From the NCBI GenBank assembly GCA_902770965.1, contig CACXUY010000014.1, forward strand, positions 1,841-65,840: a DNA stretch of 64,000 nucleotides, written 5' to 3'. A program made the translations under genes and the position numbers. The notes under the pieces were generated by a model. The model saw nothing but the letters and a program-made list of their open reading frames with translations, made no database searches and had not been told where the DNA came from. Positions 35,194-64,000 of the stretch are shown one piece after another (the stretch's first letter is position 1; the number at the start of each line of letters is the position of its first letter). The DNA is from an uncultured Lachnospiraceae bacterium. GTDB lineage: Bacteria > Bacillota > Clostridia > Lachnospirales > Lachnospiraceae.

Positions 35194-35222
35194 TTGACAA
35201 TCAATATTGGAGTGTATATAAT
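35194..35222 (+). promoter_or_regulatory. consensus sigma70 promoter for the tRNA pair
   Basis: TTGACA at 35194-35199, a 17-nt spacer, and TATAAT at 35217-35222. The tRNA-Pro 5' end lies 22 nt downstream. Confidence 0.7.
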
Positions 35223-35243
35223 AGCGAAGTATCGAGTTCGCAA

Positions 35244-35317
35244 CGAGGTGTGGCTCAGCTTGGTAGAGCGCTGCGTTCGGGACGCAGAGGTCGCAGGTTC
35301 AAATCCTGTCGCCTCGA
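35244..35317 (+). tRNA. tRNA-Pro (anticodon CGG)
   Basis: I folded the cloverleaf by hand. The acceptor stem CGAGGTG pairs with CGCCTCG, the D arm is GCTCAGCTTGGTAGAGC, the anticodon stem-loop is CTGCG-TTCGGGA-CGCAG, and the T loop is GGTTCAAATCC. CCA is not encoded. Confidence 0.9.
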
Positions 35318-35368
35318 CTTGGACGCATTTCCTACTTGCGTCGAGACAATTTAATATTTATAACATGT

Positions 35369-35440
35369 GGTTCCTTGGTCAAGCGGTTAAGACGCCGCCC
35401 TCTCACGGCGGAAACAGGGGTTCGATTCCCCTAGGGACTA
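35369..35440 (+). tRNA. tRNA-Glu (anticodon CTC)
   Basis: The acceptor stem GGTTCCT pairs with AGGGACT (two G-U pairs). The anticodon stem-loop is CCGCC-CTCTCAC-GGCGG, and the T arm is AGGGGTTCGATTCCCCT. Confidence 0.85.
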
Positions 35441-35441
35441 T
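35419..35441 (+). repeat. left copy of 23-bp exact direct repeat (tRNA-Glu 3' end; att-like)
   Basis: GGTTCGATTCCCCTAGGGACTAT is identical to 47088-47110. Imperfect similarity continues for about 60 nt more, through a terminator-like hairpin, on both sides. Confidence 0.9.
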
Positions 35442-35999
35442 TGAAAAAGACCTCTCATCGAAGGTCTTCTTTTTTTGTTTTGGAAGGGGTGAATCAGGGA
35501 AACAGGGGAGTCAGGGTGAGACACGTGGACTCAGGCGAGTCCACATGACTCTTTTGAACATATGTAGTAGAAATATAGGATGGAAGCTGATTCGCGGATC
35601 ATAGACTGTTTTGCAAGCGGCGGTTTGGTTTTTGTTGATACTTATTCCCAGACGTAAGTGCGGGCTCTTTGCAAGGCGTATGTTTACATTAGGTTCATGG
35701 CATCTTATCATTTTAGTATGATATATTGTGTATGAATCACGACATCGCATGAATATATCTTGTAATTAGACGCTCTGTTTGCTATGTTTATTTGGTCAGA
35801 CACGTCGAGACTGATTTGTCAGTAACCCCCCATGCAGGATGCTGCCCCACCATGCATATAAGCCTGGGGGGGTAATGTCCATGCGGGGCATGCACACGGC
35901 CGCGCAGAGGAAGGTGCCGGCTGAATGCGACGCACGGTCGGCGCAGCTCGCCGCAAGCGGCGAGTTTATATAGTAATCATGAACAAGGAGACTTGGAAG

Positions 36000-37031
36000 A
36001 TGTCAAAAATAACACCCACTCCATATCAGGATATTTATTCCGAAATCAAAGATGCGCTATTACTTTCCCGTAACCAGGCCTATAGTGCGGTCAATTTTGC
36101 AATGGTTCAGGCATACTGGCACATTGGGCGAATCATCGTGGAGCACGAGCAGAACGGAAGCCTTCGTTCCGAATATGGAAAGGGTGTGTTGAAGGATGTG
36201 TCAGAACGGCTTCAACAGGAGTTTGGCGATGGGTTTTCTGTTCGGAATCTGCAACAGATGAAAAAGTTCTACGCTACTTTTCCAAATGCGAACGCACTGC
36301 GTACGCAATTGACCTGGACACATTATCGCGCTTTGCTTCGCGTGGAGGATGACATAGCGCGAAACTGGTATATAGAGGAGTGCATTAAATCCGGATGGTC
36401 GAGTCGACAGCTGGAGCGGCAGATTTCCACGTTATACTACGACCGACTTTTGGCTAGCAGGGACAAGTCTTCTGTAATTGCGGAAGCGGGAGAATTGATG
36501 AAACCGCTTGAGGCAGAGAGCTTTATCAAAGACCCTTACGTGTTGGACTTCCTCGATTTGAAAAACTACCCTGCCCTGCGCGAGTCCGATCTGGAACAGG
36601 CATTGATCGACAAATTGCAGGAGTTTCTGCTGGAGCTGGGACGCGGATTCTGCTTTATTGCAAGACAGAAACTCATGCGGTATGAAGACGAGGACTTCTA
36701 TCTTGATCTTGTCTTTTATCACAGCATTTTGAAATGCCACGTACTGATCGATCTGAAAATCGGAAAGCTGACACATGCCGACGTTGGCCAAATGGACAGT
36801 TACATCCGTATGTTTGATGCGCTATACAAAAACGATGACGACAATCCTACGATTGGGATTATCCTTTGTTCTCAGAAAAATGAGGCTATTGTTAAGTATT
36901 CGGTGTTGAACGATGCGAAACAAGTCTTTGCTTCTAAGTACCGTCTGACGTTGCCCACAGCAGAGGAATTGCAACGGGAGATTGAGGAAGAAAGACGAAA
37001 AATCGAGGAAAGAGGGGAATCGAGAAACTGA
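36000..37031 (+). CDS. YhcG-family (DUF1016) PD-(D/E)XK nuclease
   Basis: AVNFAMVQAYWHIGRIIVEHEQNG, LTWTHYRALL, GRGFCFIARQ and DLVFYHSILKCHVLIDLKIGK are typical of YhcG/DUF1016. ATG 36000 follows AAGGAG. Confidence 0.75.
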   Translation: MSKITPTPYQDIYSEIKDALLLSRNQAYSAVNFAMVQAYWHIGRIIVEHEQNGSLRSEYGKGVLKDVSERLQQEFGDGFSVRNLQQMKKFYATFPNANALRTQLTWTHYRALLRVEDDIARNWYIEECIKSGWSSRQLERQISTLYYDRLLASRDKSSVIAEAGELMKPLEAESFIKDPYVLDFLDLKNYPALRESDLEQALIDKLQEFLLELGRGFCFIARQKLMRYEDEDFYLDLVFYHSILKCHVLIDLKIGKLTHADVGQMDSYIRMFDALYKNDDDNPTIGIILCSQKNEAIVKYSVLNDAKQVFASKYRLTLPTAEELQREIEEERRKIEERGESRN

Positions 37032-37043
37032 GGAGGCACATAG

Positions 37044-37511
37044 AATCTCTCTGTGCTACGTTCCCGTGGCAGCTATACCGTCATCGACAAGATCACGGTC
37101 AGTCTGAATATCAAGCGCGATGTCTATGAGGCCGAGTTCTCCAATCTCGGTCTGAAGGCTGTGCCGATTTCTGACGAGTACCCGGATTTGGTGCATCGTG
37201 CAGTTGGATTACGAATACATCGAAGAGGATAAGAAGAACGGCAATCCCATTCAGATTCGGAAGCTGACTCCGATACAGCTTTCCTTGACTGTATGCACTG
37301 CTATATTCCCGGTTGGGAGATTCCAAAGTTTTGTCCGGAGCATTTCACGAATGACTACGGATTCATTACGGACTACCTCGCCGAATATATCCGGGAGCTG
37401 CGGAAGGAACAGTACGGCGATGCGCTGGCTCACTACTTCCACCTTGGAAAAAATCTGAATCAGCGCGACACCATAGCCGTGCGCAGGATAGTTGTATTAA
37501 ACGTCAAATAA
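37044..37511 (+). pseudogene. brxL: remnant of a brxL-type (BREX Lon-like protease, TIGR02688) gene
   Basis: Three frame-shifted pieces. They read VIDKITVSLNIKRDVYEAEFSNLGLKAV (N-terminal region), VQLDYEYIEED...PIQIRKLTPIQ, and DTAFLDCMHCYIPGWEIPKFCPEHFTNDYGFITDYLAEYIRELRK...LGKNLNQRDTIAVR (C-terminal region). The AAA+ core and both gene ends are missing. The match is from my memory of BrxL sequences. Confidence 0.5.
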
Positions 37512-37528
37512 ATAATAGGGGTGGCAAG

Positions 37529-39217
37529 ATGGAAGAAAAAACGGTTTACAGTTATCACACCTTTCTATATCCCTTTTTGTGGAATGACATAGATGGGAAT
37601 CACAGTATTGATGTCTTTGAGACAAAATTAAAACTGGAAAGTGCAGGCTGGTCTCAGGATGATATGGTTTCTAAAAAGAATGGTGAAATTAATCTGACCA
37701 GTGTTGTCAATAATGAGTCCCAAGATGAACAACGACTGGATTATCAGACATTTCAGTATTTTAATCCGGCTGCAAGAAAAGCTCTCTTTCGGGAAGATGG
37801 AGAAATAGTGCATGGTTGGAAGTATCGTTCGGGTGACGTACATAATAAAGCAGAATATAAGATATTTGAAAAAGGAAGCGATAATCCATATGTTTTGAAT
37901 ATAAATCATATCCGTCTCAGACTTTTCAATACCGGTGTAGGGATACTTGTGTTTGAGTTGGAGTACCCTATGCCGAACGAGGGAGTAAAAAAAGCACGGC
38001 AGGATATCAGAGCGATCAACGAGCTTGGTAGAAGAGTTTTTCCGGAGTTCCTTCCTGAACAGCCAGAAATTTTCATGGGAAGCCTTTTTGCCACGAGAAT
38101 AGAAATTGTTGTTGATGAGAATCATTTTGAAGAGAATTTGTACTGTCGTTCGGGGTTGCATGGAGAACAAAGCTACCTTAGAGATCCGTTGCATAAGCAG
38201 AGTTTTTTATTTACGCTTTTAGGCTATGATAGCAATAGTACAATCTCTATAACACCAGCTGTGGATGATAGGATGTTTGTCTGCTGCTGTATAATGGATC
38301 CGGATTATACAGAACATTTTTTATATCGTTCGTATCAGGATCCGTCTTTAGAGAAGACCGAATTATCGGAAGAAGAAAAGAAATTTAGTATGCAAAATAA
38401 GCAGCCTATGTTTCTGGATAACTGGGATGTTGGTACGGAATTATATGCATTGACCAATATTGATTATAAAGATAGCAGTTGTCAGAATCGGGTGATGCTG
38501 AACCAATACTTTGAAGATCAACTATATCTTAGGTGGACTGAGATCGGGTATAGCACGATTTATTCGGTGACAAACCATTCGATGATATGTTTGACCGGAG
38601 ATAGGAAATATGTTACTGCGCCAGTTGTTAATCCTTTCTTGATTGAATATATCCAACTTTGTATATTGGTTCTTGCTCAGAGGGCATCTTTGATAGCCTT
38701 TGATAGCAGAATTACAGAGGCTATTTCCAGGGATGACGAGAAAGAGATTATCACTGACAAGTTGTTAACATTATCCAAAGATTTTGCTAAGTTTCAGGGG
38801 CAAATCCTGATTCCTGAGGCTACTCCTCAAATACAAGGTATAGAGCTTTATGGAAAGCTGCAGAGGATGCTCTTTATTGAAAAACTTCAAAATAACGTAC
38901 TCAGTCAGATGAGCAGTCTTTCTGGAATGGCTCAATATGAGCAGGAACGAAGACAGCAAAAAATGGATAAAGATCTTGAAGAACAACAATTTAAGACAGG
39001 CTTATTCTTCAACGTGATAGCAGCGGTTACGATAGTTTCGGTTCTGATTGATTTATTTAATTATATAGTCTGGTTTGTTTCTCCTCATGATGATATATGT
39101 CTTCCATCATGGTGGATAATGATGATTATTGATGTTATATTGATTTTAACTGTCGCGGGAAGAAGTATAAGCTTGATCCATGATAAAAAGAAGAAGGAGA
39201 AAGAGAAGGATGAGTGA
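37529..39217 (+). CDS. corA: CorA-like membrane protein, candidate type III CRISPR accessory effector
   Basis: 562 aa. It has a large soluble N-terminal region and a predicted long helical segment (KLQNNVLSQMSSLSGMAQYEQERRQQKMDKDLEEQQ). Two TM helices sit at the extreme C-terminus (GLFFNVIAAVTIVSVLIDLFNYIVWFV; WWIMMIIDVILILTVAGRSISLI), followed by a KKKKEKEK tail. There is no GMN motif. Its stop overlaps the cmr1 start. Confidence 0.6.
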   Translation: MEEKTVYSYHTFLYPFLWNDIDGNHSIDVFETKLKLESAGWSQDDMVSKKNGEINLTSVVNNESQDEQRLDYQTFQYFNPAARKALFREDGEIVHGWKYRSGDVHNKAEYKIFEKGSDNPYVLNINHIRLRLFNTGVGILVFELEYPMPNEGVKKARQDIRAINELGRRVFPEFLPEQPEIFMGSLFATRIEIVVDENHFEENLYCRSGLHGEQSYLRDPLHKQSFLFTLLGYDSNSTISITPAVDDRMFVCCCIMDPDYTEHFLYRSYQDPSLEKTELSEEEKKFSMQNKQPMFLDNWDVGTELYALTNIDYKDSSCQNRVMLNQYFEDQLYLRWTEIGYSTIYSVTNHSMICLTGDRKYVTAPVVNPFLIEYIQLCILVLAQRASLIAFDSRITEAISRDDEKEIITDKLLTLSKDFAKFQGQILIPEATPQIQGIELYGKLQRMLFIEKLQNNVLSQMSSLSGMAQYEQERRQQKMDKDLEEQQFKTGLFFNVIAAVTIVSVLIDLFNYIVWFVSPHDDICLPSWWIMMIIDVILILTVAGRSISLIHDKKKKEKEKDE

Positions 39218-40556
39218 TCATCATAATTCACCATATTGTAGGTTAGTAGAACTCCGGCAGTATACTCCTTTATTACATTTTCAGGGAGATACAGAGGGAG
39301 CTTGTTTGCGTGCATCAGAAGTGAAGCCAAAGCTGGATCGTTTCGTGTGGGATTATCTTAACAGAAATCAAATCAGCATTCCGGAAAGTTGGCAGCTTAA
39401 GAACATGGATGAAGAGTCTCCATATGAACCAGCTTTACGATACAAGATGCGGTTTATGGGAAATATGAAGAAAAGAGAAGATAAGAAACATCTTCTTTAT
39501 TTTGCGCAGAACATGGACGGTACTTCAATAGCTTTAGAAAGCTTATCTAATACCAGGATGACGATTATTTCTCTGGTCAAAGATCGTTTGGGAACAGACT
39601 GTCCACTTTACAATAATAAATATTTGGAGAATCCCACTATCTGTGAGTTGATTGACGCATTACTTCCCGCATTCTTCTGTCTGCATTGTTTTGGAACAAG
39701 AAATGGAAAAGGCTTTGGAAGCTTTGAAATCGTAGGAAGTACTATAAGCGATGAGGAGATTGATTACTATAAAGAACGAGATTGTATGAAAGTATACCGT
39801 TTGTCATCCAGTCGAAATTCATATTCGGACATGAATTGTCTGGATGATATTTATGTCCTTTCGGGTATGATGAAGGGCGGTTTTAATCGTCCATATTATA
39901 AAGGAGATATTCAAAAATATCTATGGAGAGAGAACATAGGTTCAGAAAAATCGTTTATAAAGCAAGAGATATTTCCTAATGAGACGGTAAACAACACAGG
40001 AGAATCATTATTGGACTGGTATAATAATGATCTTTGTGGGGGAAGAAATCATAGACCTCAAAAGGTATATAAAAACAATCAATTTCTCCGCGCCATGTTA
40101 GGATTAACTGATCACTATGATTATTTTTTCTACAATAGAAATTTGAAAAAACGCGTAGTTAAAACGATATGGGTAAAGTCGAAAAACAGTGAAATAACAC
40201 GTTTTGCGAATCCTATCCGCTTTAAGCCATGTTCTGGAGGTTTTCGTATACTTGTATACAGGATACCGAATGCGATGTTAAACAAGTCGCAAGCATCGGA
40301 AGACAATGGTTTTGAGTTTTCTTTTAGTTCCAAGCAATATACGCTTTATACACCAGAATTTTTTGATCTTGTGGCTTTTATGCATTATTTCCTTTCTCCG
40401 TTTCACGATAATAAATCGAGAAAGTCGCATAATTGGGAAGCGTTAAAAGATAAAAGTTATCAGCTGTATTATGGCAAAAATAATAGCCAAACTCGGTTTT
40501 TTAATGATACCCTTGATAATCTCCGGATCGCGTATGGATGGGAGGAATCCATATGA
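39210..40556 (+). CDS. cmr1: type III-B RAMP protein Cmr1 (divergent, long)
   Basis: It is the first gene of a cmr1-cas10-cmr3-4-5-6 order. It has YTPLLHFQGD...LRASEVKPKLDRF, the G-rich loop FGTRNGKGFGSF, and RFANPIRFKP. ATG 39210 lies inside ATGAGTGA, overlapping the upstream stop. Confidence 0.6.
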   Translation: MSDHHNSPYCRLVELRQYTPLLHFQGDTEGACLRASEVKPKLDRFVWDYLNRNQISIPESWQLKNMDEESPYEPALRYKMRFMGNMKKREDKKHLLYFAQNMDGTSIALESLSNTRMTIISLVKDRLGTDCPLYNNKYLENPTICELIDALLPAFFCLHCFGTRNGKGFGSFEIVGSTISDEEIDYYKERDCMKVYRLSSSRNSYSDMNCLDDIYVLSGMMKGGFNRPYYKGDIQKYLWRENIGSEKSFIKQEIFPNETVNNTGESLLDWYNNDLCGGRNHRPQKVYKNNQFLRAMLGLTDHYDYFFYNRNLKKRVVKTIWVKSKNSEITRFANPIRFKPCSGGFRILVYRIPNAMLNKSQASEDNGFEFSFSSKQYTLYTPEFFDLVAFMHYFLSPFHDNKSRKSHNWEALKDKSYQLYYGKNNSQTRFFNDTLDNLRIAYGWEESI

Positions 40557-42199
40557 ATAAACAGTATGTAGGTGTTACCATAGGCCCCATTACCGATACA
40601 TTGATGCTCACTTCCTCGCCTGCCGGTCTTTGGGGTGCAAGTTATCTCTTCTCGTGGATTAGCCGTAGATTGATTCATTATTTAGTGGTTGATTATAAGG
40701 TTGAGCAGAGTCGATTTGTAGCCCCCTTTTTCTCAGTGAAGAATAACGAGATCTTTCTTCCTGAAGAAAATGATATCGATTATGAGGATATGTGGAAAAA
40801 GGGAATTGGCCTGTTTCATGATCGTATAATATTCTGTTCAGATAGTTTAACAAACCCACTTGAAATCGTTGCGAAGGCCAGAGAAGCTGTCATTTGCGAA
40901 CTCACAGAAGAAATAGCTAGAATAGAATCTAAAACAGAATCTACGACAAATAAGAAGGATATATATGAGTGGCTGGATGGTTATATACGGATTTATGCTG
41001 TTCAAAGGGAGAGCGCATCTCCACTACTAGATTTGGGTGCTGATCTAAGTGCAATGGAACTGGAACCTCATTTTTTCGGGCTTGAAAAGTATAATCATCT
41101 TTTGGGTATTTTTGAAAATATAATTCCTTGCGATGAAAATCATTCACATATGGAGCTGGGGATGAAAAATAAGCTGATGAAGCAATTCCTGCTCTCTCAT
41201 CGTGATGAAGATGCCTGGGTGCTTTATGATAATAATCATATGATAAAAGATTTACAGGATATCGCAGCGAATGGTGCAAATCCTGTAATGAAACACACTC
41301 AGTATTATGCTGTGCTGAAATCAGACGGAGACAGTATGAGCAAGATACTGGAAAACTTGATTGACGATGAAGAAGTCCGAACCTATAGTAAAAAATGCCT
41401 TGGTTTCTGCGCAAAGGCTGCTCAGCAGATATATAAATACGGCGGTGTGCCTCTTTATGCGGGTGGTGACGACCTGTTGGCTCTTTTGCCGTTAACCGGC
41501 ACGCACCCTGAAAATCATGAGAAATGTACCCTTTTTGGCTTAATAAATTATATACGCACATTGTTTAATGGGGTGTTTAAAGAGGATAGAGAAAGATTTA
41601 ATGGCATGCCGACGATATCTTTTGGTATCTCAATACAATTCTATAAAAGCCCGTTGTTTGAGGCACTGGAGCGAGCAGATGGATTACTGTATCGTGCTAA
41701 ATTGGGATTAAAAGATGCATGCTATCTGCATCTGCAAAAACATAGTGGACAATCTGTATTGTTTACCGAAGAACGTCTTAATTACGTTAATGAAGAAGGC
41801 GACAATTTGATTTCCGCTTTGGACAAGTTGTTAACAAATACGAGAATCGGTGATATCAATAATGACGATGCTGTTCTTTTTCTGTCTGGTCTAGGATTTA
41901 CATTGGAACAATATAAAAATTTGTTTTACCTGGCTATCGAAAAGACAAAGCGAACAGATGCGATTTTAGAGAATCTGTTCGCTAATCTCTTTAGCAATGT
42001 GGATCAAAAACAATTTGAACCTTATATAACCGAAATAAAAAAATTGACAGTGCAGCTCATCAGAAAGAATAGTGAGAATGAAGCAAAGGCAAAAAGAAGG
42101 CAGAATGAAGCAAATCAGGGCGAAGGAGTTATGTCTCAGCTTCAGGCCATAATTCGACTATTGCATTTTATGAGAGAGGGGGGAGCAGAGAAAGAATGA
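40553..42199 (+). CDS. cas10: Cas10/Cmr2 large subunit lacking the HD domain
   Basis: It starts directly with the Cmr2 block YVGVTIGPITDTL...GLWGASYLFSWI. It has YYAVLKSDGDSMSKIL, the cyclase motif LYAGGDDLLALLP (GGDD at 41462-41473), and ISFGISIQFYKSPLFEALERADGLLYRAK. It is only ~548 aa with no HD-type N-terminus. Confidence 0.8.
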   Translation: MNKQYVGVTIGPITDTLMLTSSPAGLWGASYLFSWISRRLIHYLVVDYKVEQSRFVAPFFSVKNNEIFLPEENDIDYEDMWKKGIGLFHDRIIFCSDSLTNPLEIVAKAREAVICELTEEIARIESKTESTTNKKDIYEWLDGYIRIYAVQRESASPLLDLGADLSAMELEPHFFGLEKYNHLLGIFENIIPCDENHSHMELGMKNKLMKQFLLSHRDEDAWVLYDNNHMIKDLQDIAANGANPVMKHTQYYAVLKSDGDSMSKILENLIDDEEVRTYSKKCLGFCAKAAQQIYKYGGVPLYAGGDDLLALLPLTGTHPENHEKCTLFGLINYIRTLFNGVFKEDRERFNGMPTISFGISIQFYKSPLFEALERADGLLYRAKLGLKDACYLHLQKHSGQSVLFTEERLNYVNEEGDNLISALDKLLTNTRIGDINNDDAVLFLSGLGFTLEQYKNLFYLAIEKTKRTDAILENLFANLFSNVDQKQFEPYITEIKKLTVQLIRKNSENEAKAKRRQNEANQGEGVMSQLQAIIRLLHFMREGGAEKE

Positions 42200-43368
42200 A
42201 ATATTGGAAAATAACCCTAAAACCTTTAGATGCTTATTTCCTGGGAGGGGAGCGAAATGTATTTTATCAAAACAATCCGGTACAACGTTCCGAACGAAGA
42301 CCTTATTTTATTCGTTCCAATCATATGATTTCACAGTCCGCTGCGTTTGGAGTACTACGATATCTAGGTATTCATAGCCCAAATGCTAATTATCGTTTGT
42401 CGTCTGAGGATATAAAAAATATAGGAGACAGAAGCTTTAGCATCACACGAAACCAACAAGGATACGGTCGCATATGCAGTATTTCCCCCGTGTTTCTATG
42501 TGATCAGGAAGGTAAACGGTACGTAGCTGCTCCGTGTAATCGTGTTAAGGCTGATTTTGAATGCTGCTATGATAAAGAGCATCCAAAGATGCCGTTTGTT
42601 TCCTTTGAAGCCTTCCGACGTGTAATAACCATGGATGGTACACGGTATTTACCATCTGAGTATAATGAGAAAAGGGCTTGTGACCCATCAGATCTGCTAT
42701 GCTTAGAAACAGGTGACGTCATATCATCCCCTTTTTCTACTCAGATACGTACGGGAATCAATAGAGAAAGTCAAAAGCTAAAGCAAAATGGAAATCTGTC
42801 GGACGATAATCCTAGTGGTTTCTTTAAGAAGGAATATATTGTTCTGGATAGAGACTATTCCTTCATGTTTTATGCTGAAACAGAAGATGGTTTTTTTATT
42901 CACCGTGATACAGTGGTTTACATAGGACAGGGAAGAACGCCTTTTTCTGCTCATGCAGAAGATGCACAGAAAAAGTGGGATATTGATTTACCGGTTTGTT
43001 GCCGACCGTCAGTTGGAGCAAAATGGGAAAGCGCAACGGTAATTTCTGACATGTTCTTTGATGGGCATATAAAAGAACTAAAAAGGCTGTGCTCATTGAT
43101 GATTTCATCTATCAGGGATCATCGGTGTATGGAAACAAATTACTCGGCAGAAAATGCGGGCAACCGATATAGTAAAAAGGAAGCATTAAAACTGATACCT
43201 GCCGGTAGTGTGTTTTTGTTTATGGGAGACGATAACGGTAAAGAACCGAAGGATCAGCTTTGTCATTTTCGAAATACGCTGATAAAAACCCGTTATTGGG
43301 ATAGCGCTTTGCGCGCCGGCTTCAATTATGTACTATATAGCGATATTCAACAGAATGGAGGACAATGA
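42196..43368 (+). CDS. cmr3: type III-B RAMP protein Cmr3
   Basis: ITLKPLDAYFLGGERNVF...SQSAAFGVLRY (Cmr3 N-terminal pattern), ISPVFL, and its position after cas10. It has an ATGA overlap with cas10. Confidence 0.7.
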   Translation: MKYWKITLKPLDAYFLGGERNVFYQNNPVQRSERRPYFIRSNHMISQSAAFGVLRYLGIHSPNANYRLSSEDIKNIGDRSFSITRNQQGYGRICSISPVFLCDQEGKRYVAAPCNRVKADFECCYDKEHPKMPFVSFEAFRRVITMDGTRYLPSEYNEKRACDPSDLLCLETGDVISSPFSTQIRTGINRESQKLKQNGNLSDDNPSGFFKKEYIVLDRDYSFMFYAETEDGFFIHRDTVVYIGQGRTPFSAHAEDAQKKWDIDLPVCCRPSVGAKWESATVISDMFFDGHIKELKRLCSLMISSIRDHRCMETNYSAENAGNRYSKKEALKLIPAGSVFLFMGDDNGKEPKDQLCHFRNTLIKTRYWDSALRAGFNYVLYSDIQQNGGQ

Positions 43369-44171
43369 TTATGTCAAATATACTGTATAGGTTAACATGC
43401 CTTACCAACCTTCATATGGGGAGCGGAGATATAAACTATGATGTGATAGACTTGGAAGTAGAGCGCGATCCGGTATTAATGGAGCCAACAATGAATGCTA
43501 GCGGTGTCAAAGGTGCCCTTCGGGATTATTGTAAGAAAACTATGTCTGATGATGATTTGCTGTTTGTATTTGGCGGCAAAGCAAAAAATGATGATGATAA
43601 CGGAGCTCAAAGAAATAATCAAGGGACACAGCAGGGGTTTTACAATTTTTTTTCCGGAGATATGTTGGCTCGTCCTATAAGAATATCTGAAGGAGAAGGG
43701 GCATATCTGCTTGCTACAACGCCAGATATTCTCAAAACGCTTTTGCGTAAATTACATGCGTTTGGGTTTTGCATCGGCTATAATGAGAATGATATTCCGG
43801 CTCTGCCGCAAGATGGTTCTGTACTATCCCCGGTAAATATCATAAGTGTTGAAGGACAAAAAGTTACAAATGGAACGTGCGCATATTTATCTGCTCTTCT
43901 TGGATCTGACCATTGGGTTTTGATGAGCAGTCAACAGTTAAGGGATATTGATCTGCCGGTTTTAGCTCACAATGTATTGGAGGATGGTATCAGCAAGAAT
44001 CTATGGTATGAGCAGGTTGTTCCTCATGAGAGTGTTTTCTTGCTGATCATATCAGGACTGGAAAACGACGATAGATTAAGTAAGACGTTAACTAAAAAGT
44101 GCATGGTTCAGTTTGGCGCGGGAGCTACCACTGGAAACGGTTATACCTTGATGGAACAACTGGAGGTATAA
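43365..44171 (+). CDS. cmr4: type III-B backbone RAMP Cmr4
   Basis: CLTNLHMGSGD...VIDLEVERDPV...ASGVKGALRDY (RAMP motif with candidate catalytic Asp) and the C-terminal G-rich loop FGAGATTGNGYT. Confidence 0.75.
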   Translation: MIMSNILYRLTCLTNLHMGSGDINYDVIDLEVERDPVLMEPTMNASGVKGALRDYCKKTMSDDDLLFVFGGKAKNDDDNGAQRNNQGTQQGFYNFFSGDMLARPIRISEGEGAYLLATTPDILKTLLRKLHAFGFCIGYNENDIPALPQDGSVLSPVNIISVEGQKVTNGTCAYLSALLGSDHWVLMSSQQLRDIDLPVLAHNVLEDGISKNLWYEQVVPHESVFLLIISGLENDDRLSKTLTKKCMVQFGAGATTGNGYTLMEQLEV

Positions 44172-44175
44172 ACAC

Positions 44176-44601
44176 ATGAACAAGAAATTAGTGAATGAAC
44201 TCATTCCTTTAGCATATCAGGAATTAGATTCAGTAGGTATTGCTCAGAACGGTGAGATCTCAAAGGGCTTTCGTGGCCAGATTGCTTCTTTTGGTGCAGC
44301 AATAGCCACAGGGTCTTTGCTGGCGGCATCGGCATTCTTTAATGATCAGGGCGGCTCTAAGAGTGAACGCCATAAGCTAATGGTGGCCATTAACAATATG
44401 TTGGCTTACAAGGATATGGAGAATGGTTGCTTAGTACAAAATCAAGGAAATACCTTATTTGATACTGTAAAAATATGGATGAAGGCTCACAATGGTTCTG
44501 ATAGGGAGATTAAAGAAAAAGTGCTTTCGTGTGCCATAGCCTTAAAACTTGCCATGAATCTTTACTCACTGAAACCAGAGAAAAAGAATAAAAAAGGCTA
44601 A
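44176..44601 (+). CDS. cmr5: type III-B small subunit Cmr5
   Basis: 141 aa and helical. FRGQIASFGAAIATGSLLAASAFF resembles the Cmr5 core. It lies between cmr4 and cmr6. Confidence 0.65.
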   Translation: MNKKLVNELIPLAYQELDSVGIAQNGEISKGFRGQIASFGAAIATGSLLAASAFFNDQGGSKSERHKLMVAINNMLAYKDMENGCLVQNQGNTLFDTVKIWMKAHNGSDREIKEKVLSCAIALKLAMNLYSLKPEKKNKKG

Positions 44602-44622
44602 TTTTGCGGAGGAGGATCATTC

Positions 44623-45540
44623 TTGAACCAGCATTATGAATTTTGGGTAAAATACTATGAGAGGTTGATAGAATCCGATACTGCATTTGCTGAAGCGCTT
44701 AATATTAATAATGAAAATTTGACGAAACGCATTTGGAAAACAGGAAATCGGGAAATCCTTCCGGGATGCAATGAAGAACCCTTCTCTGGCTGCAAACATC
44801 TACGATTGGAGGTGAATTATCCTGGCTTGTTAGTAGGCATAGGAAACGCTCATGACAGTGGGAAGAAATTTGAAGATAAAGACAAAACCGACAGGACAAA
44901 AAAGAAAGATAAGAAAAAGGATACACCAGAAGAAATAAAACTGGGAATACTATTAGACTCAGTAACCGGTTTGCCGTTTTTACCTGGAAGCATGTTGAAG
45001 GGGATATTGCGCTCGGCATTCTTATATAATGTTGATTATATTAAAGATTTGCTTCAGTATATAGATTCTTCTTTATTGCTGACCGCCGAACAGGTAGAAG
45101 AATTAGAACTGGATATTTTCGGACATCAACACCCTTGCCATAATTATGAAACCGATATCGAAGCAGGGACAGGAAGAGATGTTTTTTTTGATGTTTATCC
45201 AATTCAGCCGGATGGGAAAAGTCATCTGATTGGTATAGAAAACATCACATCTCACCGTGCTAAAAACCGTAAGCTCGATGGCTTAACAAAACTCAATCCA
45301 CTTACGCTGCTAAAGATTATGCCGGGAGTAGTGCTTTTGTTTAGGTTTTATCTGAATGATACTGATTTAAAAGATGGAATCAGGATTACAGCAAATCATA
45401 AATTAAATCTTTTTAAACAGATACTGCTTGATTTGGGCGCTGGTGCAAAGACAAATGTGGGCTTTGGCGTGTTGACAGATACGAAAAACCCTGAGGAAAC
45501 GGACAAGTATTATTATCTGGAAGAAATGCACAGAGATTAA
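44623..45540 (+). CDS. cmr6: type III-B RAMP protein Cmr6
   Basis: GLPFLPGSMLKGILRSAF, DIFGH, DVFFDVYP and the G-rich loop LGAGAKTNVGFGVL. The TTG start is 7 nt after GGAGGAGG. Confidence 0.75.
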   Translation: MNQHYEFWVKYYERLIESDTAFAEALNINNENLTKRIWKTGNREILPGCNEEPFSGCKHLRLEVNYPGLLVGIGNAHDSGKKFEDKDKTDRTKKKDKKKDTPEEIKLGILLDSVTGLPFLPGSMLKGILRSAFLYNVDYIKDLLQYIDSSLLLTAEQVEELELDIFGHQHPCHNYETDIEAGTGRDVFFDVYPIQPDGKSHLIGIENITSHRAKNRKLDGLTKLNPLTLLKIMPGVVLLFRFYLNDTDLKDGIRITANHKLNLFKQILLDLGAGAKTNVGFGVLTDTKNPEETDKYYYLEEMHRD

Positions 45541-45564
45541 GAACTAAAATCATCATTTAGTAGA

Positions 45565-45594
45565 AACCTCCTGGTCCATCTCAGGAGGTTTTTT
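45565..45594. terminator. bidirectional terminator between cmr6 and the convergent DUF3791 gene
   Basis: AACCTCCTG (45565-45573) pairs with CAGGAGGTT (45582-45590), then TTTT. The same hairpin recurs at ~48962-48990. Confidence 0.65.
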
Positions 45595-45799
45595 CTGATA
45601 CTCTCTTATAATAATCCCTAAAATAATCCGGTCCCTCTGCCCAAAGTGCTGAATCGAAATCGAGCAGGCATTCGTAAGCTTTTGATTCAAGGACTTCTTT
45701 TCTGATTTCGTCAATTGGTTTTCCACTTTCGGCGGCCATATCTTCAATAGCAAGGGCTAATGTCAGAGCAGCGCATGTATTCATTGTTTCATATGACAT
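45581..45799 (-). CDS. DUF3791-like small protein
   Basis: 72 aa. It lies downstream of, and overlaps, a DUF3990-like gene, which is the triad arrangement I recall from Clostridia. Confidence 0.5.
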   Translation of the reverse strand: MSYETMNTCAALTLALAIEDMAAESGKPIDEIRKEVLESKAYECLLDFDSALWAEGPDYFRDYYKRVSEKTS

Positions 45800-46367
45800 A
45801 TTTCCTCGCCTCCTGAAACATCAGACAGCTTATAACTTTTTCAGTCAAGAAGCAGAACTGATCTTCAAGCTTATCAGGCAAAAGCCTTTTGATTGTATCA
45901 TTTATCGCTTCGTCAGATTCTATATCTCCATACAATTCGCCAAGATAAGCTGTGATGGTTGTATTTGTTTTATCATTTGCAACTTTTCCGATAATGATTT
46001 CCGCACTAAATATTCTGGGGTCAATTCCTGGTTTTAGTTGCGTGGCAAGATGTTCTCGTCTGTTCTGCGCGATAAACCAGAGCCATTCTTTATTAGTTGT
46101 AGGAAATTCATAAAAATCTATTCCCTCTTTCGGTGCTTTGAATCTAAAGGATAAAACAAAACCAAAGTCTTGGTCCATCGGCAAATCGCCAGTATTTACT
46201 GCTTTTCGTATGGATGATTTAATAAAAAGCCGGGCTTGATTTAGGTTCGAAGTCAGATAAAAGCCCTTACCAAAATCCTTACCTTTATTGCACATCGAAA
46301 GGTCGATTGTCTCAACAGGGGCATAGCTTCCGTGAAACAGGAGCATGCCGTCTCTTAACTTGGTCAT
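45789..46367 (-). CDS. DUF3990-domain protein
   Basis: MTKLRDGMLLFHGSYAPVETIDLS...GKDFGKGFYLTS is a typical DUF3990 N-terminus. It has an ATGA overlap with the upstream DUF3791 gene. Confidence 0.6.
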   Translation of the reverse strand: MTKLRDGMLLFHGSYAPVETIDLSMCNKGKDFGKGFYLTSNLNQARLFIKSSIRKAVNTGDLPMDQDFGFVLSFRFKAPKEGIDFYEFPTTNKEWLWFIAQNRREHLATQLKPGIDPRIFSAEIIIGKVANDKTNTTITAYLGELYGDIESDEAINDTIKRLLPDKLEDQFCFLTEKVISCLMFQEARKYVI

Positions 46368-46576
46368 ACACATGCCCCCTTTTTCTGTAGAATGCGAACG
46401 ATACCATTGAGAATATACTCGTCACCGTTCATGTGAAGAACATCATAGCACTCTTCGATATATTTCCAGATGCCATAGTTTTCAAATAAGCGATTAGCGT
46501 CCGCAGGTTTCAAATTAAATTTACGAACGAAATCACTAAAAACCCTTGCTTCCATAAACAGTATCTCATTAACCAT
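46364..46576 (-). CDS. DUF3791-like small protein
   Basis: The start is MVNEILFMEARVFSDFVRKF, preceded by GGAGGA. The ORF-track N-terminal extension has no support. Confidence 0.55.
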   Translation of the reverse strand: MVNEILFMEARVFSDFVRKFNLKPADANRLFENYGIWKYIEECYDVLHMNGDEYILNGIVRILQKKGACV

Positions 46577-47087
46577 GACCGTATCCTCCGTAGAAAAGCA
46601 TAACATATTTATCTGATAACATAAAGAACGATTTTTACTGTTTACTAGAAGGTATTCCGGTATGAAGGGAAAAAAGGTGGTTTTCAGCGGGATCAAAGGA
46701 TCCTGCCGGTTTTCCGGAGTTGACCGTACCGCTCTTGCGTTGCTCGCCGTAGGCGAGTTGCTCCACATTGGAAAAAATAGCAGCTTTAGATTTGGACGTT
46801 ATACCATGCTGAGTCCTCGAGACTAGCTGGGCGAATCAAGGGCGAGCGGACGGCAGGGACTGTTCTGTTGTCCGCTTTTAAATCTGATACAAGATACAGG
46901 ATGTCCGCAAATAACACCAGAATATTGGTGGATTCTTGGTGAACATGGTGCCAATATATCAATAAAAAAACTAATCAGGTTAGAAAAAGTATAGCATGAC
47001 CGTGCAAAACATGGGCAGAAATTACTATATAGTTTGACAAATCGATATACAGAACAAAATAATTCAAAATTGTTCTGCAAATGCAAT

Positions 47088-47110
47088 GGTTCGATTCCCC
47101 TAGGGACTAT
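47088..47110 (+). repeat. right copy of 23-bp exact direct repeat (partial tRNA-Glu 3' end; att-like)
   Basis: GGTTCGATTCCCCTAGGGACTAT has no tRNA 5' half upstream. It is followed by a hairpin (AAAAAGACCTCTCAGCAGAGGTCTTTTT) similar to the one after the intact tRNA-Glu. Confidence 0.9.
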
Positions 47111-47388
47111 CTAAAGAAAAAGACCTCTCAGCAGAGGTCTTTTTCATTTTCGGAGGAGGGGTGAGTAATCCGGGCTCCGGGTACCAGCAATCCGCAAATG
47201 GATATCGATATACCGGAGTATGATATCGGGCGATTCAAAACATTCAGTCCGCCTAAGCGTACTTTTTATTCGCCAATGATACCATCCTGACATAGAATGA
47301 TGCCAGGCAATCAGTGCCTGCATTCAATCCTGAATCGCCTTATCAAGGATTGAGTGTTGAAAATAGAGGAAGTTCACATGTACCGGCA

Positions 47389-47438: not shown

Positions 47439-48011
47439 ATGATGACCATCCGAGAGAAATTAAAAGATAAAAACATGTCTGTATACCGGCTTGCCAAAGC
47501 TAGCGAGCTTCCCTATGCGACTGTAAACGATATTTGCAGCGGCAAAGCGCAGCTGGAAAAATGCAGCGCCGAAACGATCTATAAGATTGCCAAAGCACTG
47601 GACGTTCCCATGGAGGAACTGCTTGCCCCCTGCTTCCTCAAACGCAGCAGTTTTGAAAACTTCAAAAGCAATATCTGCCACCGAGTCAAAGAGCTGGGCG
47701 ATATAGACTTTCTTATCGAAACGCTGGAGAGCCATGACATCCGGACCTATTATGAGCGGAAATGGTATCCTGAAAGCCTTTACCTCCTTGCCATGCTGGA
47801 CTATATCAGCCGGGAAAATGATGTTCCCCTTGTCAGCGAATACGACGACATCAGGCGGTGCAGGCTGGAAAAACCGGTTTATCCGGCCAGTCTCCGGGCT
47901 GTTTCAGCGGCGGCCAGAAGCGACGCCGCGCTGAAAGAGGCAGAGAAAACGGCGATCCCGGAGTTTATGCGGTTTAACATTATAGAAAGCGAAGTGCGAA
48001 ATGTCATCTGA
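47439..48011 (+). CDS. XRE-family HTH protein (putative antitoxin/regulator)
   Basis: The N-terminal HTH reads MSVYRLAKASELPYATVNDICSGK...TIYKIAKALDVPMEELL. The stop overlaps the next start by 11 nt. Confidence 0.65.
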   Translation: MMTIREKLKDKNMSVYRLAKASELPYATVNDICSGKAQLEKCSAETIYKIAKALDVPMEELLAPCFLKRSSFENFKSNICHRVKELGDIDFLIETLESHDIRTYYERKWYPESLYLLAMLDYISRENDVPLVSEYDDIRRCRLEKPVYPASLRAVSAAARSDAALKEAEKTAIPEFMRFNIIESEVRNVI

Positions 48012-48774
48012 ACGCAGCGTTGAGTTTACAAAAGACAATATTGACATCTACTTGAAAGAGGTTGCGAAGGAATACCGGAAACAGGTTGGGAAGGGAATGC
48101 CCGCCGAACTGATCCTGATCGGCGGTGCTTCCGTCCTGATCAATTACGGATTCAGAAATATGACCACCGATATAGACGCCTTGATCCGGGCGGCTTCCAG
48201 CATGAAGGATGCGATTAGCAGGGTTGGTGATCGTTTTGGCCTTCCCACCGGCTGGCTGAACGCCGACTTCAAGAACACGGACTCCTACACCCCGAAGCTC
48301 GAAGAGTTTTCCTCCTATTACAGAACCTATTCCAACGTACTGTCAATCCGTACCGTGAAAGCGGAATATCTGATTGCCATGAAACTGCGATCCGGCAGAC
48401 AGTATAAGAGTGACCTGTCCGATGTGCTGGGCATTCTGGCGGAACATGAAAAAAGAGGAACGCCTATCACGATGGAGCAGATACGAAAAGCCGTGACTGA
48501 CCTGTACGGCGACTGGACATCTCTTTCGGATGTGTCTCAGGCGTTTATAGAAAATGTCATGGCGGACGGACGGTTTGAACAGCTTTATGTGCAGACGGCC
48601 CAGGGTGAGAAGGAAACGAAGGAACTTCTGATCCGGTTTGAGAAGGACTATCCGGGCGTAACGAAGGAGTCCAATGTGGACGCTATCGTCGGTAATCTTC
48701 AAAAGAAAGCGGATAAAGCTTCCATCCTTGCCCAGCTTCGGCAAAAGAAGTCCAAAGGCATGGAGACAATTTAG
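48001..48774 (+). CDS. Pol-beta-fold nucleotidyltransferase-like protein (DUF6036/AbiEii-like), putative toxin
   Basis: LILIGGASVLINYGFRNMTTDIDAL matches the GG/GS-x(n)-DxD nucleotidyltransferase pattern. AEYLIAMKLRSGRQYKSDLSD is typical of this family. It is translationally coupled to the HTH gene. Confidence 0.55.
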   Translation: MSSERSVEFTKDNIDIYLKEVAKEYRKQVGKGMPAELILIGGASVLINYGFRNMTTDIDALIRAASSMKDAISRVGDRFGLPTGWLNADFKNTDSYTPKLEEFSSYYRTYSNVLSIRTVKAEYLIAMKLRSGRQYKSDLSDVLGILAEHEKRGTPITMEQIRKAVTDLYGDWTSLSDVSQAFIENVMADGRFEQLYVQTAQGEKETKELLIRFEKDYPGVTKESNVDAIVGNLQKKADKASILAQLRQKKSKGMETI

Positions 48775-48957: not shown

Positions 48958-49527
48958 GAAAAACCTCCTGATCCATCTCAGGAGGTTTTTTCTGATACCT
49001 TCTTATAGTAATCTCTAAAATAATCCGGTCCTTCTGCCCAAAGCGCTGAATCGAAATCGAGCAGGCATTCGTAAGCTTTTGATTCAAGAACGTCTTTTCT
49101 GATTTAGTCAATTGTTTTTCCGCTTTCGGCAGCCATGTCTTCAATAGCAAGGGTTAATGTCAAAGCAGCGCATGTGCTCATTGCGTCATATGACATATTT
49201 TTTCGCCTCCTCAAACATCAGACAACTGATAGCCTTTTCAGTCAAGAAGCAGAACTGATCTTCAAGCTTATCAGGCAAAAACCTTTTAATTGTAGTTTCC
49301 GTGAAACAGGAGCATGCCGTCTCTTAACTTGGTCATACACATGCCCCCTTTTTCTGTAGAATGCGAACGATATCATTGAGAATATACTCGTCACAGTTCA
49401 TGTGAAGAACATCATAGCACTCTTCGATATATTTCCAGATGCCATAGTTTTCAAATAAGCGATTAGCGTCCGTAGGTTTCAAATTAAACTTACGAACAAA
49501 ATCACTAAAAACCCTTGCTTCCATTTC
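48958..49527 (-). pseudogene. decayed second copy of the DUF3791-DUF3990-DUF3791 cassette
   Basis: It is collinear with 45561-46560 at high identity. The DUF3990 body is deleted, with a junction near 49295 leaving only MTKLRDGMLLFHG. The distal DUF3791 is disrupted, while the proximal DUF3791 (49333-49524) is nearly intact. Confidence 0.75.
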
Positions 49528-52890: not shown

Positions 52891-53582
52891 TTGACGCGCT
52901 TCGGCGATATACTAACACCGAAGGCGTGGGACGGAGGAAAGAACATGCACAATACCACGAATACCGCACCCTACACGATAAAGCCAGCAGATATAGCAGC
53001 CGAGGTCAACGGCACAACGTCCGCAGTCGGCAGCGCAACCGCTGCCACGACTGGCAGCGCAACCACCATAGCCAATAGCACCACGGTCACAGGTACAAGC
53101 ATTGCGCATAAGGGCGTGACCACTGCCGCAGTTGGCGGCAGTTCCAAGGTGAACGAAAAGATCAAGGACAGGCTGTTTAAGTTCGTTTTCGGCAATCCGG
53201 ACAACAAAGAGTGGACGCTGAGTCTCTTGATGTAGCGATAAATGAAATGCCGGATGATTTTGTCATCAAGCCTTTCATCATTCTTCACAGAGCGGAGGTA
53301 AAGCACATGTGTATCACGGAATATGACGAGGAACGAACTCTGGCGGAAATGAAAGAAGACGGCAGAAAAGAAGGAAGAGCAGAAGGAAGAGAAGAAGGAA
53401 GAGCAGAAGGAAGAGCAGAAGGAAGAGCAGAAGGAAGAGCAGAAGGAAGAGCAGAACTCGCTGAATTGATATCCGTGCTTCTTGATCAGGGCAGGATAGA
53501 GGATGCCAAGCGTCTGGCCAAGGATATAGAGTTCAGGGACGGTCTTTTAGCGGAGTTCGGCATAGGCACTGCAAACGGTTAA
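52891..53582 (+). pseudogene. Rpn-family (PD-(D/E)XK, transposase_31-like) gene with an internal deletion or frameshift
   Basis: The N-terminal fragment has KDRLFKFVFGNPDNKEWTLSLL. The second frame (53211-53582) has the typical C-terminal tail with EGRAEGR repeats and LISVLLDQGRIEDAKRLA. The nuclease core is missing. Confidence 0.45.
53370..53453 (+). repeat. 7 x 12-bp tandem repeat (GAAGGAAGAGCA) encoding (EGRA)n
   Basis: Direct reading; one unit differs by one base (GAA for GCA). Confidence 0.9.
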
Positions 53583-56823: not shown

Positions 56824-56830
56824 CATTATA

Positions 56831-56990
56831 TGAAGGATGGCTATCTTTGAAGGCTGGTCATCTATGAAGGCTGGCCATCTATAGAAATTTGATCATCTAT
56901 GGCAGCTGGCCATCTATAGAAATTTTGTCATCTATGAAGGCTGGCCATCTATAGAAATCTGCTCATCTATGAGGACTGATTATCTATGAT
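56831..56990. repeat. complex tandem repeat (~35-bp units built on CATCTAT cores) between permease and ATPase genes
   Basis: AAGGCTGGCCATCTATAGAAATTTGATCATCTATG-like units occur three times, with partial units on both sides. Confidence 0.85.
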
Positions 56991-63145: not shown

Positions 63146-63817
63146 ATGGTATGGGTTGATAACGCATCAAAGAAAGCTACGGATTTTATTGATCATTCCT
63201 GTGCCGCCTTCACTGAAGCGCTGGCATCGAAAGCACCGGTCCCGGGCGGCGGAGGCGCGTCGTCGCTGGTAGCCGCAATAGGGATAGCCTTGGGCAGCAT
63301 GGTCGGAAGCCTTACTCTGGGCAAGAAGAAATACGCTGATGTCCAGAACGATATAGAGGTGTTGATGGGTGAGGCGGAAGAGCTGAGGAAGGCTTTCCTG
63401 AATTTGGTCGGTCGCGATGCCGAGGTCTTCGAACCCCTTTCGAGAGCTTATGCTCTGCCAAAGGATACAGAAGAGCAGCTGGCTGAGAGAGACAGGGTCA
63501 TGGAAGAAGCCTTGGCGGATGCATGCCTTGTGCCGCTTGAGATCATGGAGAAATGCTGCCGCGCGATAGAGGTCATAGCCGGTTTTGCTCAAAAGGGTTC
63601 TGCGATAGCTATCAGCGATGCGGGAGTCGCCGCAGCCTGCTGCCGCGGGGCGCTTGAAGGCGCGAGCCTGAATGTTTTTATCAACACCAAGGCGATGAAG
63701 AACCGCGAGACCGCGGAATCATTTAACGAGAGAGCAGACGCTATGCTGGATAAATATGTCCCAATGGCGGAAGAGATATTTATAAATGTTCGAGGCAAAC
63801 TTAAGGAACAAAGATAA
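63146..63817 (+). CDS. cyclodeaminase/cyclohydrolase-family protein (FtcD C-terminal / FchA-like)
   Basis: FTEALASKAPVPGGGGASSLVAAIGIALGSMVGSLT is the family signature. ATG 63146 follows GAGGAGG. The ORF-track N-terminal extension reads through the repeat. Confidence 0.75.
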   Translation: MVWVDNASKKATDFIDHSCAAFTEALASKAPVPGGGGASSLVAAIGIALGSMVGSLTLGKKKYADVQNDIEVLMGEAEELRKAFLNLVGRDAEVFEPLSRAYALPKDTEEQLAERDRVMEEALADACLVPLEIMEKCCRAIEVIAGFAQKGSAIAISDAGVAAACCRGALEGASLNVFINTKAMKNRETAESFNERADAMLDKYVPMAEEIFINVRGKLKEQR

Positions 63818-63970: not shown

Positions 63971-64000
63971 AAGTATAGGGAGAAAGTATGCCAGCTAGAT

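Follow-up and report, generated by a model that had tools for sequence, protein, structure and literature searches.

Can a CRISPR effector module that answers foreign RNA by way of a membrane protein still protect its host when it has neither an array nor an intact cas6 beside it, nor an enzyme that degrades its messenger? This question is raised by an operon in a 64-kb stretch of contig CACXUY010000014.1 (GenBank assembly GCA_902770965.1), from an uncultured Lachnospiraceae bacterium. The whole stretch is called the window here, and all positions are given in the numbering of its + strand. The operon (37529-45540, +) consists of seven co-directional and closely packed open reading frames (ORFs), corA, cmr1, cas10, cmr3, cmr4, cmr5 and cmr6, and very probably encodes a type III-B (Cmr) effector module with an associated CorA, of the kind known from the Bacteroides fragilis system that signals through S-adenosylmethionine-AMP (SAM-AMP). 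Its architecture is not new, being that of a fairly divergent locus of the kind characterised in B. fragilis between 2023 and 2026. Since this type has been studied genetically, biochemically and structurally and hundreds of its loci are public, we consider the operon a divergent member of the type rather than a new principle. In the window, it is an orphaned effector module, and its interest lies in what surrounds it and in what does not.

Gene content and layout of the operon

The operon and its closing hairpin are composed as follows, with the profile match or fold that identifies each element.

37529-39217, + strand: corA, CRISPR-associated CorA-like membrane effector, 562 aa (PADLOC CorA 5e-65, residues 3-551)
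39210-40556, + strand: cmr1, Cas7-like RAMP subunit, 448 aa from the ATG at 39210 (PADLOC Cmr1 7e-57)
40553-42199, + strand: cas10/cmr2, 548 aa, no HD domain (NCBIfam TIGR02577 91.6 bits, cut-off 79.4)
42196-43368, + strand: cmr3, Cas5 family, 390 aa (PADLOC Cmr3 6.7e-20)
43365-44171, + strand: cmr4, Cas7 backbone and target-RNA nuclease (NCBIfam TIGR02580 93 bits, cut-off 87)
44176-44601, + strand: cmr5, Cas11 small subunit, 141 aa (PADLOC Cmr5 6.5e-39)
44623-45540, + strand: cmr6, Cas7-like RAMP subunit, 305 aa, TTG start (NCBIfam TIGR01898 76.6 bits, cut-off 51.1)
45566-45594, + strand: intrinsic terminator-like hairpin and U-run closing the operon (RNA fold -21.1 kcal/mol, z = -5.7)

A first-pass annotation, made from the letters of the DNA, had placed seven ORFs at these coordinates and read them as cmr1-cas10-cmr3-cmr4-cmr5-cmr6 headed by a CRISPR-associated CorA-like protein. 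The profile searches that it proposed bear out this identity for every gene, all seven proteins having PADLOC matches, and the six Cmr subunits form a full effector set. Scores for Cas10/Cmr2, Cmr4 and Cmr6 exceed the curated NCBIfam cut-offs, and additional matches were obtained for Cas10 (PADLOC Cas10b 3e-46; Pfam Cas10-Cmr2_palm2 8.5e-23), Cmr4 (PADLOC Cmr4 7e-27) and Cmr6 (PADLOC 4e-23). The Pfam Cas_Cmr5 match of Cmr5 is weak (0.0022), and CorA, Cmr1 and Cmr3 returned nothing in Pfam or NCBIfam, their identification requiring PADLOC and PDB searches. The motifs on which the initial reading had relied (GGDD; GSGD..IDLEVERD..SGVKGALR; LPGSMLKGILR; GAGAKTNVGFG) are all found in the translations.

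The junctions, read directly in the sequence, are as tight as originally described. The stop of corA overlaps the start of cmr1 in ATGAGTGA at 39210-39217, ATGA overlaps join cmr1 to cas10 (40553-40556), cas10 to cmr3 (42196-42199) and cmr3 to cmr4 (43365-43368), and gaps of 4 and 21 nt precede cmr5 (ATG at 44176) and cmr6 (TTG at 44623), respectively. A purine-rich, Shine-Dalgarno-like stretch lies ahead of every start in the operon. Public gene calls on identical contigs give products of 562, 448, 548, 390, 266, 141 and 305 aa. They agree with the internal starts that had been assigned to cmr1 (39210) and cas10 (40553) and put the start of cmr4 at 43371, two codons downstream of 43365, so that Cmr4 measures either 268 aa or, from this later ATG, 266 aa, and the cmr3/cmr4 overlap must be regarded as optional. 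A longer cmr1 ORF from 39180 is less likely than the one starting at 39210, which has an AAGGAG stretch upstream of its ATG and corresponds to the public calls of 448 aa. A promoter scan performed no better than on shuffled sequence, and no candidate upstream of corA was convincing enough to be assigned. The GC content is 0.38-0.40 over the operon versus ~0.52 in its flanks.

Cas10 and its predicted signal

The kinship with the B. fragilis system is clearest for the core of the complex. The best PDB matches of Cas10 and Cmr4 are subunits of the Cmr complex from B. fragilis (9LQ5-9LQ8), namely 9lq5_B (3.6e-29) and 9lq5_D (3.4e-28), while the sole PDB match of Cmr3 is its B. fragilis counterpart (9lq5_C, 7.9e-12). 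Other Cmr complexes in the PDB come far behind, at 1e-7 or weaker. In 9LQ8, the B. fragilis complex was captured with bound ATP and S-adenosylmethionine (SAM) (PMC13294483), from which its Cas10 makes SAM-AMP (Chi et al. 2023, PMC10600005). A role in the acceptor (SAM) pocket has been attributed to the acidic pair D70/E151 (PMC10600005, PMC13294483). Across the CorA-1 clade of Cas10, both residues show absolute conservation, and their replacement in B. fragilis Cas10 (D70N/E151R) abolished SAM-AMP synthesis and increased that of pppApA (PMC10600005).

We aligned 55 Cas10 sequences with MAFFT: the one from the window, that of B. fragilis (rebuilt from a PDB alignment) and 53 from CorA-linked public loci. 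D90 and E169 of the window protein correspond to D70 and E151, respectively, and both columns are invariant in 55/55 sequences. The palm motif GGDD is intact at G304-G305-D306-D307. In the alignment, residue 2 of B. fragilis Cas10 falls on the MNKQYVGVTIGPIT block with which the window protein opens, and the window protein therefore has no HD domain. In Cmr4, the conserved D29 aligns with the catalytic Asp that was changed to Ala in the 9LQ6-9LQ8 chains. Taken as a prediction from homology, SAM-AMP is the best-supported signal of this Cas10. The initial proposal that SAM-AMP would act on CorA gains good support from the nearest structures (9LQ5-9LQ8), from the HD-less Cas10 with its GGDD motif and D90/E169 pair, and from the RR and DD motifs of the membrane protein described below.

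The CorA-like membrane protein

The product of the first gene had been described as a 562-aa protein with two C-terminal transmembrane (TM) helices and a basic tail, and both hydropathy and an AlphaFold2 model (pLDDT 85, pTM 0.80) agree with this description. An N-terminal alpha/beta sensor domain is followed by long stalk helices, by two hydrophobic terminal helices at ~488-518 and ~522-551 and by a KKKKEKEKDE tail. Searches of Pfam and NCBIfam (E <= 0.01) and of PDB sequences (E <= 1) returned no match for the protein. When its model was compared with the PDB by Foldseek, as the first-pass annotation had suggested, a CorA (8tmb_D) topped the ranking, but at E = 0.045 and with TM-scores of 0.13-0.17, short of significance; no PDB match reached E <= 0.001. 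Neither the sequence search nor Foldseek turned up a CRISPR CorA structure in the PDB. The GMN signature is absent, TM1 reading ...VLIDLFNYIVW..., and is kept in only 13 of 80 CRISPR CorA homologues. Canonical CorA/ZntB channels for Mg2+ and other metals (MIT superfamily) resemble the window protein in that a long stalk helix continues as TM1 and is followed, after a short loop, by TM2 and a basic C-terminus, but the window protein differs from them by the lack of a Pfam CorA (PF01544) match and of GMN, and by an unrelated N-terminal domain. Since the fold match is non-significant and GMN is missing, 'CorA-like' should be taken as a family label and not as proof of a CorA-type pore.

By its PADLOC match, the protein is a clear member of the CRISPR-associated CorA family. 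It keeps the N-terminal YSYH..F.PF.W block of the CorA-1 alignment (Chi et al. 2023, Suppl. Fig. 10), a GRR motif (G167-R168-R169) and a DDRMF motif, in which R168/R169 and D246-D247 correspond to R152/R153 and D219/D220 of B. fragilis CorA. These RR and DD pairs were chosen there for mutagenesis as the putative SAM-AMP site (PMC10600005). Among 28 CorA homologues, R168, R169 and D246 are invariant. More than 500 homologues were found in a search of 5.8 billion proteins, the nearest one other than the protein itself being 50% identical.

On this basis, a course of events can be proposed for the module. Cmr1, Cmr3, Cmr4, Cmr5, Cmr6 and Cas10 would assemble on a CRISPR RNA (crRNA). Upon binding of a complementary foreign transcript, Cmr4 would cut the RNA at an active site including D29, and the palm domain of Cas10 (G304-G305-D306-D307) would be turned on. 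Because the HD-less Cas10 carries D90/E169 in its acceptor pocket, it is expected to join ATP and SAM into SAM-AMP rather than to make cyclic oligoadenylate. SAM-AMP may then bind the cytoplasmic domain of CorA at an interdomain cluster including R168/R169 and D246/D247, and the ligand-bound protein would perturb the membrane via its two C-terminal helices, resulting in growth arrest or abortive infection.

Comparison with related loci

To place the operon among its relatives, we used 80 related loci, mostly from Clostridia, obtained from a scan of one genome per species; their genes were mapped with the window proteins and their neighbours were clustered. The orders corA-cmr1-6 and cmr1-6-corA are both common, and corA stands within 40 nt of cmr1 in 19 of the 80 loci, with overlapping ORFs in seven of those 19. 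A corA gene that comes first and is coupled to cmr1 is indeed present in the window, but a corA abutting or overlapping cmr1 is not unusual, and we reject the idea that gene order or translational coupling sets the locus apart. The long Cmr1 and short Cas10, which had been taken as signs of divergence, are typical of the clade: a HD-less Cas10 of 500-600 aa and a Cmr1 of 400-480 aa are the rule among these loci, and B. fragilis Cas10 is itself a HD-less protein of 600 aa.

Two sub-families of Cas6 (24 and 7 loci), RT-Cas1 (16 loci), Cas2 and CRISPR arrays recur as neighbours in the related loci. A DEDD-like nuclease accompanies the module in 23 loci, while NrN, which matches PADLOC DHH_CorA at 5e-68, occurs in eight loci plus fusions. 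The closest relatives with long context carry a DEDD-like gene beside the module (L081, 4e-66; L001; L003). Yet neither DEDD nor NrN could be recognised within 10 kb in ~17 of the 51 complete public loci, and the missing degrading enzyme in the window is thus not unique. This third of the complete loci (including L011, L013, L016, L021, L023, L029, L032, L033, L037, L038, L046, L055, L060, L071, L076, L077 and others) contrasts with the near-obligate association that has been reported.

Three known kinds of system delimit the place of the window locus. With the Cmr/CorA/NrN system of B. fragilis (PMC10600005; 9LQ5-9LQ8), it shares the cmr1-6 set, the catalytic Asp of Cmr4, a HD-less Cas10 of ~550-600 aa with GGDD and the D70/E151 pair, and a stalked CorA-family effector with two TM helices and the RR and DD motifs. 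It differs from this system in having no NrN, intact cas6, array or cas1/cas2, in a GMN-less CorA that belongs to a Clostridia clade and in a Cas10 whose match is distant (3.6e-29). Clostridial CorA III-B loci that carry a DEDD-like nuclease or a lyase of SAM-AMP (e.g. Clostridium botulinum, PMC12255297; L001, L003, L007, L081) hold the closest CorA relatives, at 41-50% identity. In L001, L003 and L007, the order is corA-cmr1-6 with corA abutting cmr1, as in the window, and L007 and L034 have, downstream of cmr6, a Cas6 of the sub-family to which the remnant described below belongs. These clostridial loci have kept a DEDD-like gene and a complete cas6, often together with arrays and RT-Cas1, none of which is present in the window. 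Finally, type III-D2 CorA systems (PMC13294483) also combine a SAM-nucleotide messenger made by Cas10 with a CorA-family membrane effector, but they make SAM-AMP and SAM-AMP2, their complex contains Cas7x3 and Cas7-5 fusions instead of the classical six Cmr subunits, they need a toxin-antitoxin (TA) module instead of NrN/DEDD, and their CorA is ~15% identical to the III-B type.

The survey also brought some observations on the relatives themselves. A conserved gene of ~140-190 aa, matched by neither Pfam nor PADLOC, stands between corA and cmr1 in nine loci (L008, L009, L015, L018, L027, L035, L045, L052, L054), usually together with a DEDD-like gene, and a different TM protein of ~180 aa takes this place in the Bacteroidota loci L049, L064, L065, L074 and L079. 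Genes for CARF-PD-(D/E)xK proteins (Card1/Can2-like) adjoin CorA-Cmr in L002, L009, L019, L028, L036, L058, L059 and L060, and one is also present in L081 (12308-13576). The presence of CARF, a sensor of the cyclic oligoadenylate type, beside CorA-Cmr loci whose Cas10 has the SAM-AMP signature is an unexpected co-occurrence.

Missing crRNA machinery and degrading enzymes

The earlier description of the operon as 'complete' applies to the effector complex but not to the locus, in which a stump is left of cas6 and the window holds no array, adaptation genes or SAM-AMP-degrading enzyme.

46620-46826, + strand: cas6 3'-terminal remnant (hidden Markov model (HMM) from the Cas6 of related loci, 8e-12, positions 256-313 of 316)

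This remnant, also matched by PADLOC Cas6 (1.9e-12, profile positions 241-294 of 296), represents the ~55 last codons of a gene of ~300 codons. By phmmer, it matches the Cas6 genes that lie downstream of cmr6 in L034, L064, L028 and L007. The 5' part of the gene is replaced by a minus-strand DUF3791/DUF3990 cassette. No CRISPR array was found in the 64 kb by TRF, two repeat searches, a custom k-mer detector or Rfam, and a search for a lone repeat with the ...GGRATTGAKAC end typical of the related arrays gave chance-level matches only.

HMMs for DEDD, NrN, RT-Cas1, Cas2 and Cas6a, built from the 80 related loci, had no match in the window, and tblastx with NrN of B. fragilis or the lyase gene of C. 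botulinum as query likewise gave nothing there. The NrN query is able to detect NrN in 10 related loci, even though the synthetic-gene sequences of the Chi et al. supplement were damaged by optical character recognition. The negative result for the lyase is weak, because the lyase query, also after its reconstruction (jackhmmer), matched nothing anywhere, related loci included. All other sizeable ORFs of the 64 kb are housekeeping or unrelated defence/mobile genes, apart from three that have no family match. A 136-aa ORF (35194-35604) was considered as a small accessory enzyme and rejected, as it is a read-through of two tRNA genes.

A low-GC island at tRNA-Glu

The module was acquired horizontally, within an 11.7-kb low-GC island located at tRNA-Glu. 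The features around the operon are given below.

35368-35476, + strand: tRNA-Glu(CTC) followed by a hairpin, left copy of a direct repeat (ARAGORN, Rfam, repeat alignment)
35925-37031: YhcG/DUF1016 PD-(D/E)xK nuclease gene, left end of the island (PADLOC PDC-S02 2e-144)
37060-37510, + strand: brxL (BREX Lon-like protease) pseudogene in frameshifted pieces (PADLOC BrxL 1e-48 on the joined pieces)
45581-46579, - strand: cassette of DUF3791, DUF3990 and a 72-aa ORF, between cmr6 and the cas6 stump (Pfam DUF3990 7e-30, DUF3791 2e-14)
47088-47149, + strand: right repeat copy of the tRNA-Glu 3' end, attR-like (repeat found and aligned)

A tRNA-Pro gene and the tRNA-Glu gene occupy 35244-35441 (ARAGORN, Rfam). 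The direct repeat comprises the last 23 nt of tRNA-Glu and ~55 nt beyond, and its two copies bound an 11.67-kb low-GC island (35442-47087). Besides the CorA-Cmr operon, the island contains the YhcG-type nuclease gene, the brxL pieces, the DUF3990 cassette and the remnant of cas6, but no remaining integrase. In other strains whose upstream YqeC/MobA gene is identical, a gene for a phage-type integrase stands beside the tRNA (L093 6913-7863, minus strand). The YhcG/DUF1016 gene also matches a 'CRISPR-associated PD-DExK' profile. The brxL pieces, read in three-frame translation, end 18 nt before corA; the best stretch of their PADLOC match covers profile positions 354-420 of 680, and public calls list a BrxL_ATPase fragment at this place. 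Elsewhere in the window, no BREX gene was found. Every public copy has 28 extra nt at ~37186, within the brxL pieces.

Parts of the cassette, which does not belong to the CRISPR system, are duplicated 3-3.4 kb apart (45564-45863 and 48961-49260, 91%; 46324-46555 and 49293-49524, 97%), the second copy comprising the 72-aa ORF and DUF3791 and not the DUF3990 gene. Since the two copies flank the cas6 stump, the attR-like repeat and a pair of HTH/DUF6036 genes, past recombination is suggested. This pair, located just outside the island (47439-48774), consists of overlapping genes for a helix-turn-helix (HTH) protein of the Cro/C1 type and a DUF6036 nucleotidyltransferase, and may be a TA or defence pair. 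Toward the right end of the window, housekeeping genes contain or adjoin short tandem repeats (53343-53468, 56829-56987 and 63779-63985; periods 12, 35 and 23 nt), which are unrelated to the operon. UvrB of the window is 75-79% identical to proteins of metagenome-assembled genomes from Lachnospiraceae and other Clostridia.

At least 21 contigs, drawn from many metagenomes, show the identical stripped configuration. Six contigs that were compared closely are 99.8-100% identical to the window and have all seven ORFs intact, with a 1-nt indel in the DUF3990 gene in two of them. Over the six copies, the module has accumulated four synonymous and five non-synonymous substitutions.

Live module or relic

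Because cas6 is truncated and the window has no array, the module could act only with crRNA from elsewhere in the genome, and a degrading enzyme would perhaps have to come from there as well. A live module supplied in trans and one that looks intact but is heading for decay appear to us about equally probable. Several points weigh against a functional module that signals by SAM-AMP to a membrane channel. No SAM-AMP-degrading enzyme was found in the window, although immunity reconstituted from the B. fragilis system requires one, either NrN or lyase (PMC10600005, PMC12255297). The 64 kb contain neither an intact cas6 nor an array, so that any activity of the module in its host is putative, and four versus five substitutions are too few to show purifying selection. 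The assignment of SAM-AMP depends on two conserved residues and on homology, 'channel' is an assumption given the fold match at E = 0.045 and the missing GMN, and the ligand specificity of CorA could have shifted, since no other protein exceeds 50% identity to it.

It is quite possible, though somewhat less likely than not, that the operon is a non-functional relic, left over from a once complete locus with corA-cmr1-6, a DEDD gene, cas6 and an array, and drifting toward loss. Its crRNA supply would have ended with the loss of most of cas6 and of the neighbouring genes, the ORFs being still intact because the event is recent. The surroundings are consistent with such erosion: the cas6 stump abuts an unrelated minus-strand cassette, pieces of a brxL pseudogene lie on the other side of the module, no array, cas1/cas2 or degrading enzyme is present in 64 kb, and the nearest relatives carry both DEDD and Cas6. 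The near-identity of the public copies (99.8-100%) points to a recent common ancestor, and their substitutions reveal no clear constraint. However, the seven ORFs are undamaged, no catalytic or ligand-site residue among those checked is lost, and the same configuration recurs in at least 21 contigs, with no frameshift of the module in the six compared while the DUF3990 gene has its indel in two of the six. Type III-B modules drawing on arrays and Cas6 encoded elsewhere in the genome are well known.

Other signals and other partners

Signalling by SAM-AMP also has to be weighed against a different messenger. It is improbable, in our view, that this Cas10 makes a cyclic oligoadenylate or another nucleotide, sensed in place of SAM-AMP by a divergent CorA without GMN, in the way proposed for the Actinomyces CorA linked to Csm6-2. 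A CorA clade without degrading enzymes has been suggested to respond to cyclic hexaadenylate (cA6) (PMC11229360). The window locus is likewise without a degrading enzyme, its CorA does not exceed 50% identity to any other database protein, and the eight related CorA loci mentioned above also encode CARF-PDDEXK proteins. Nevertheless, the D70/E151 pair that specifies SAM is invariant in all 55 Cas10 sequences, the window included, and Cas10, Cmr3 and Cmr4 are nearest to the SAM-AMP complex of B. fragilis. Moreover, no Csm6-2, CARF or SAVED gene is present in the island, and the closest relatives carry DEDD-like genes.

Highly improbable is a re-wiring in which the DUF3791/DUF3990 cassette or the HTH-DUF6036 pair took over the accessory role of NrN/DEDD in signal turnover or toxicity control, by analogy with type III-D2, for although the cassette directly follows cmr6 in every public copy and type III-D2 CorA systems depend on a TA module next to them, by which the messenger may be degraded (PMC13294483), none of these genes stands beside CorA-Cmr in the 80 related loci, and the cassette runs counter to the operon, bears a frameshift in two of the six public copies compared, has a second partial copy 3.4 kb away, as expected of an independent mobile or duplicated unit, and matches the stand-alone candidate defence system PDC-M13 of PADLOC.

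Implications for CorA-mediated immunity

We consider it unlikely, though of wider interest, that an intact CorA-Cmr module in a widespread lineage of gut Clostridia still defends its host without a degrading enzyme, a cas6 of its own or an array. If this were true, the module would use crRNAs made elsewhere, and it would either tolerate undegraded SAM-AMP or rely on an unrecognised turnover factor. The 'obligate' need for NrN, DEDD or lyase, which is unexplained in the B. fragilis system, would then not be universal, a picture into which ~17 further public CorA-Cmr loci with no recognisable degrading enzyme would also fit.

To conclude, the locus amounts to a natural experiment, in which an otherwise intact CorA-Cmr module without known degrading enzyme or crRNA machinery of its own recurs unchanged across many metagenomes. 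If active, it bears on the reason why CorA-mediated immunity needs SAM-AMP degradation. If inactive, it offers a clean example of the erosion of a defence island and of its overwriting by other defence cassettes.

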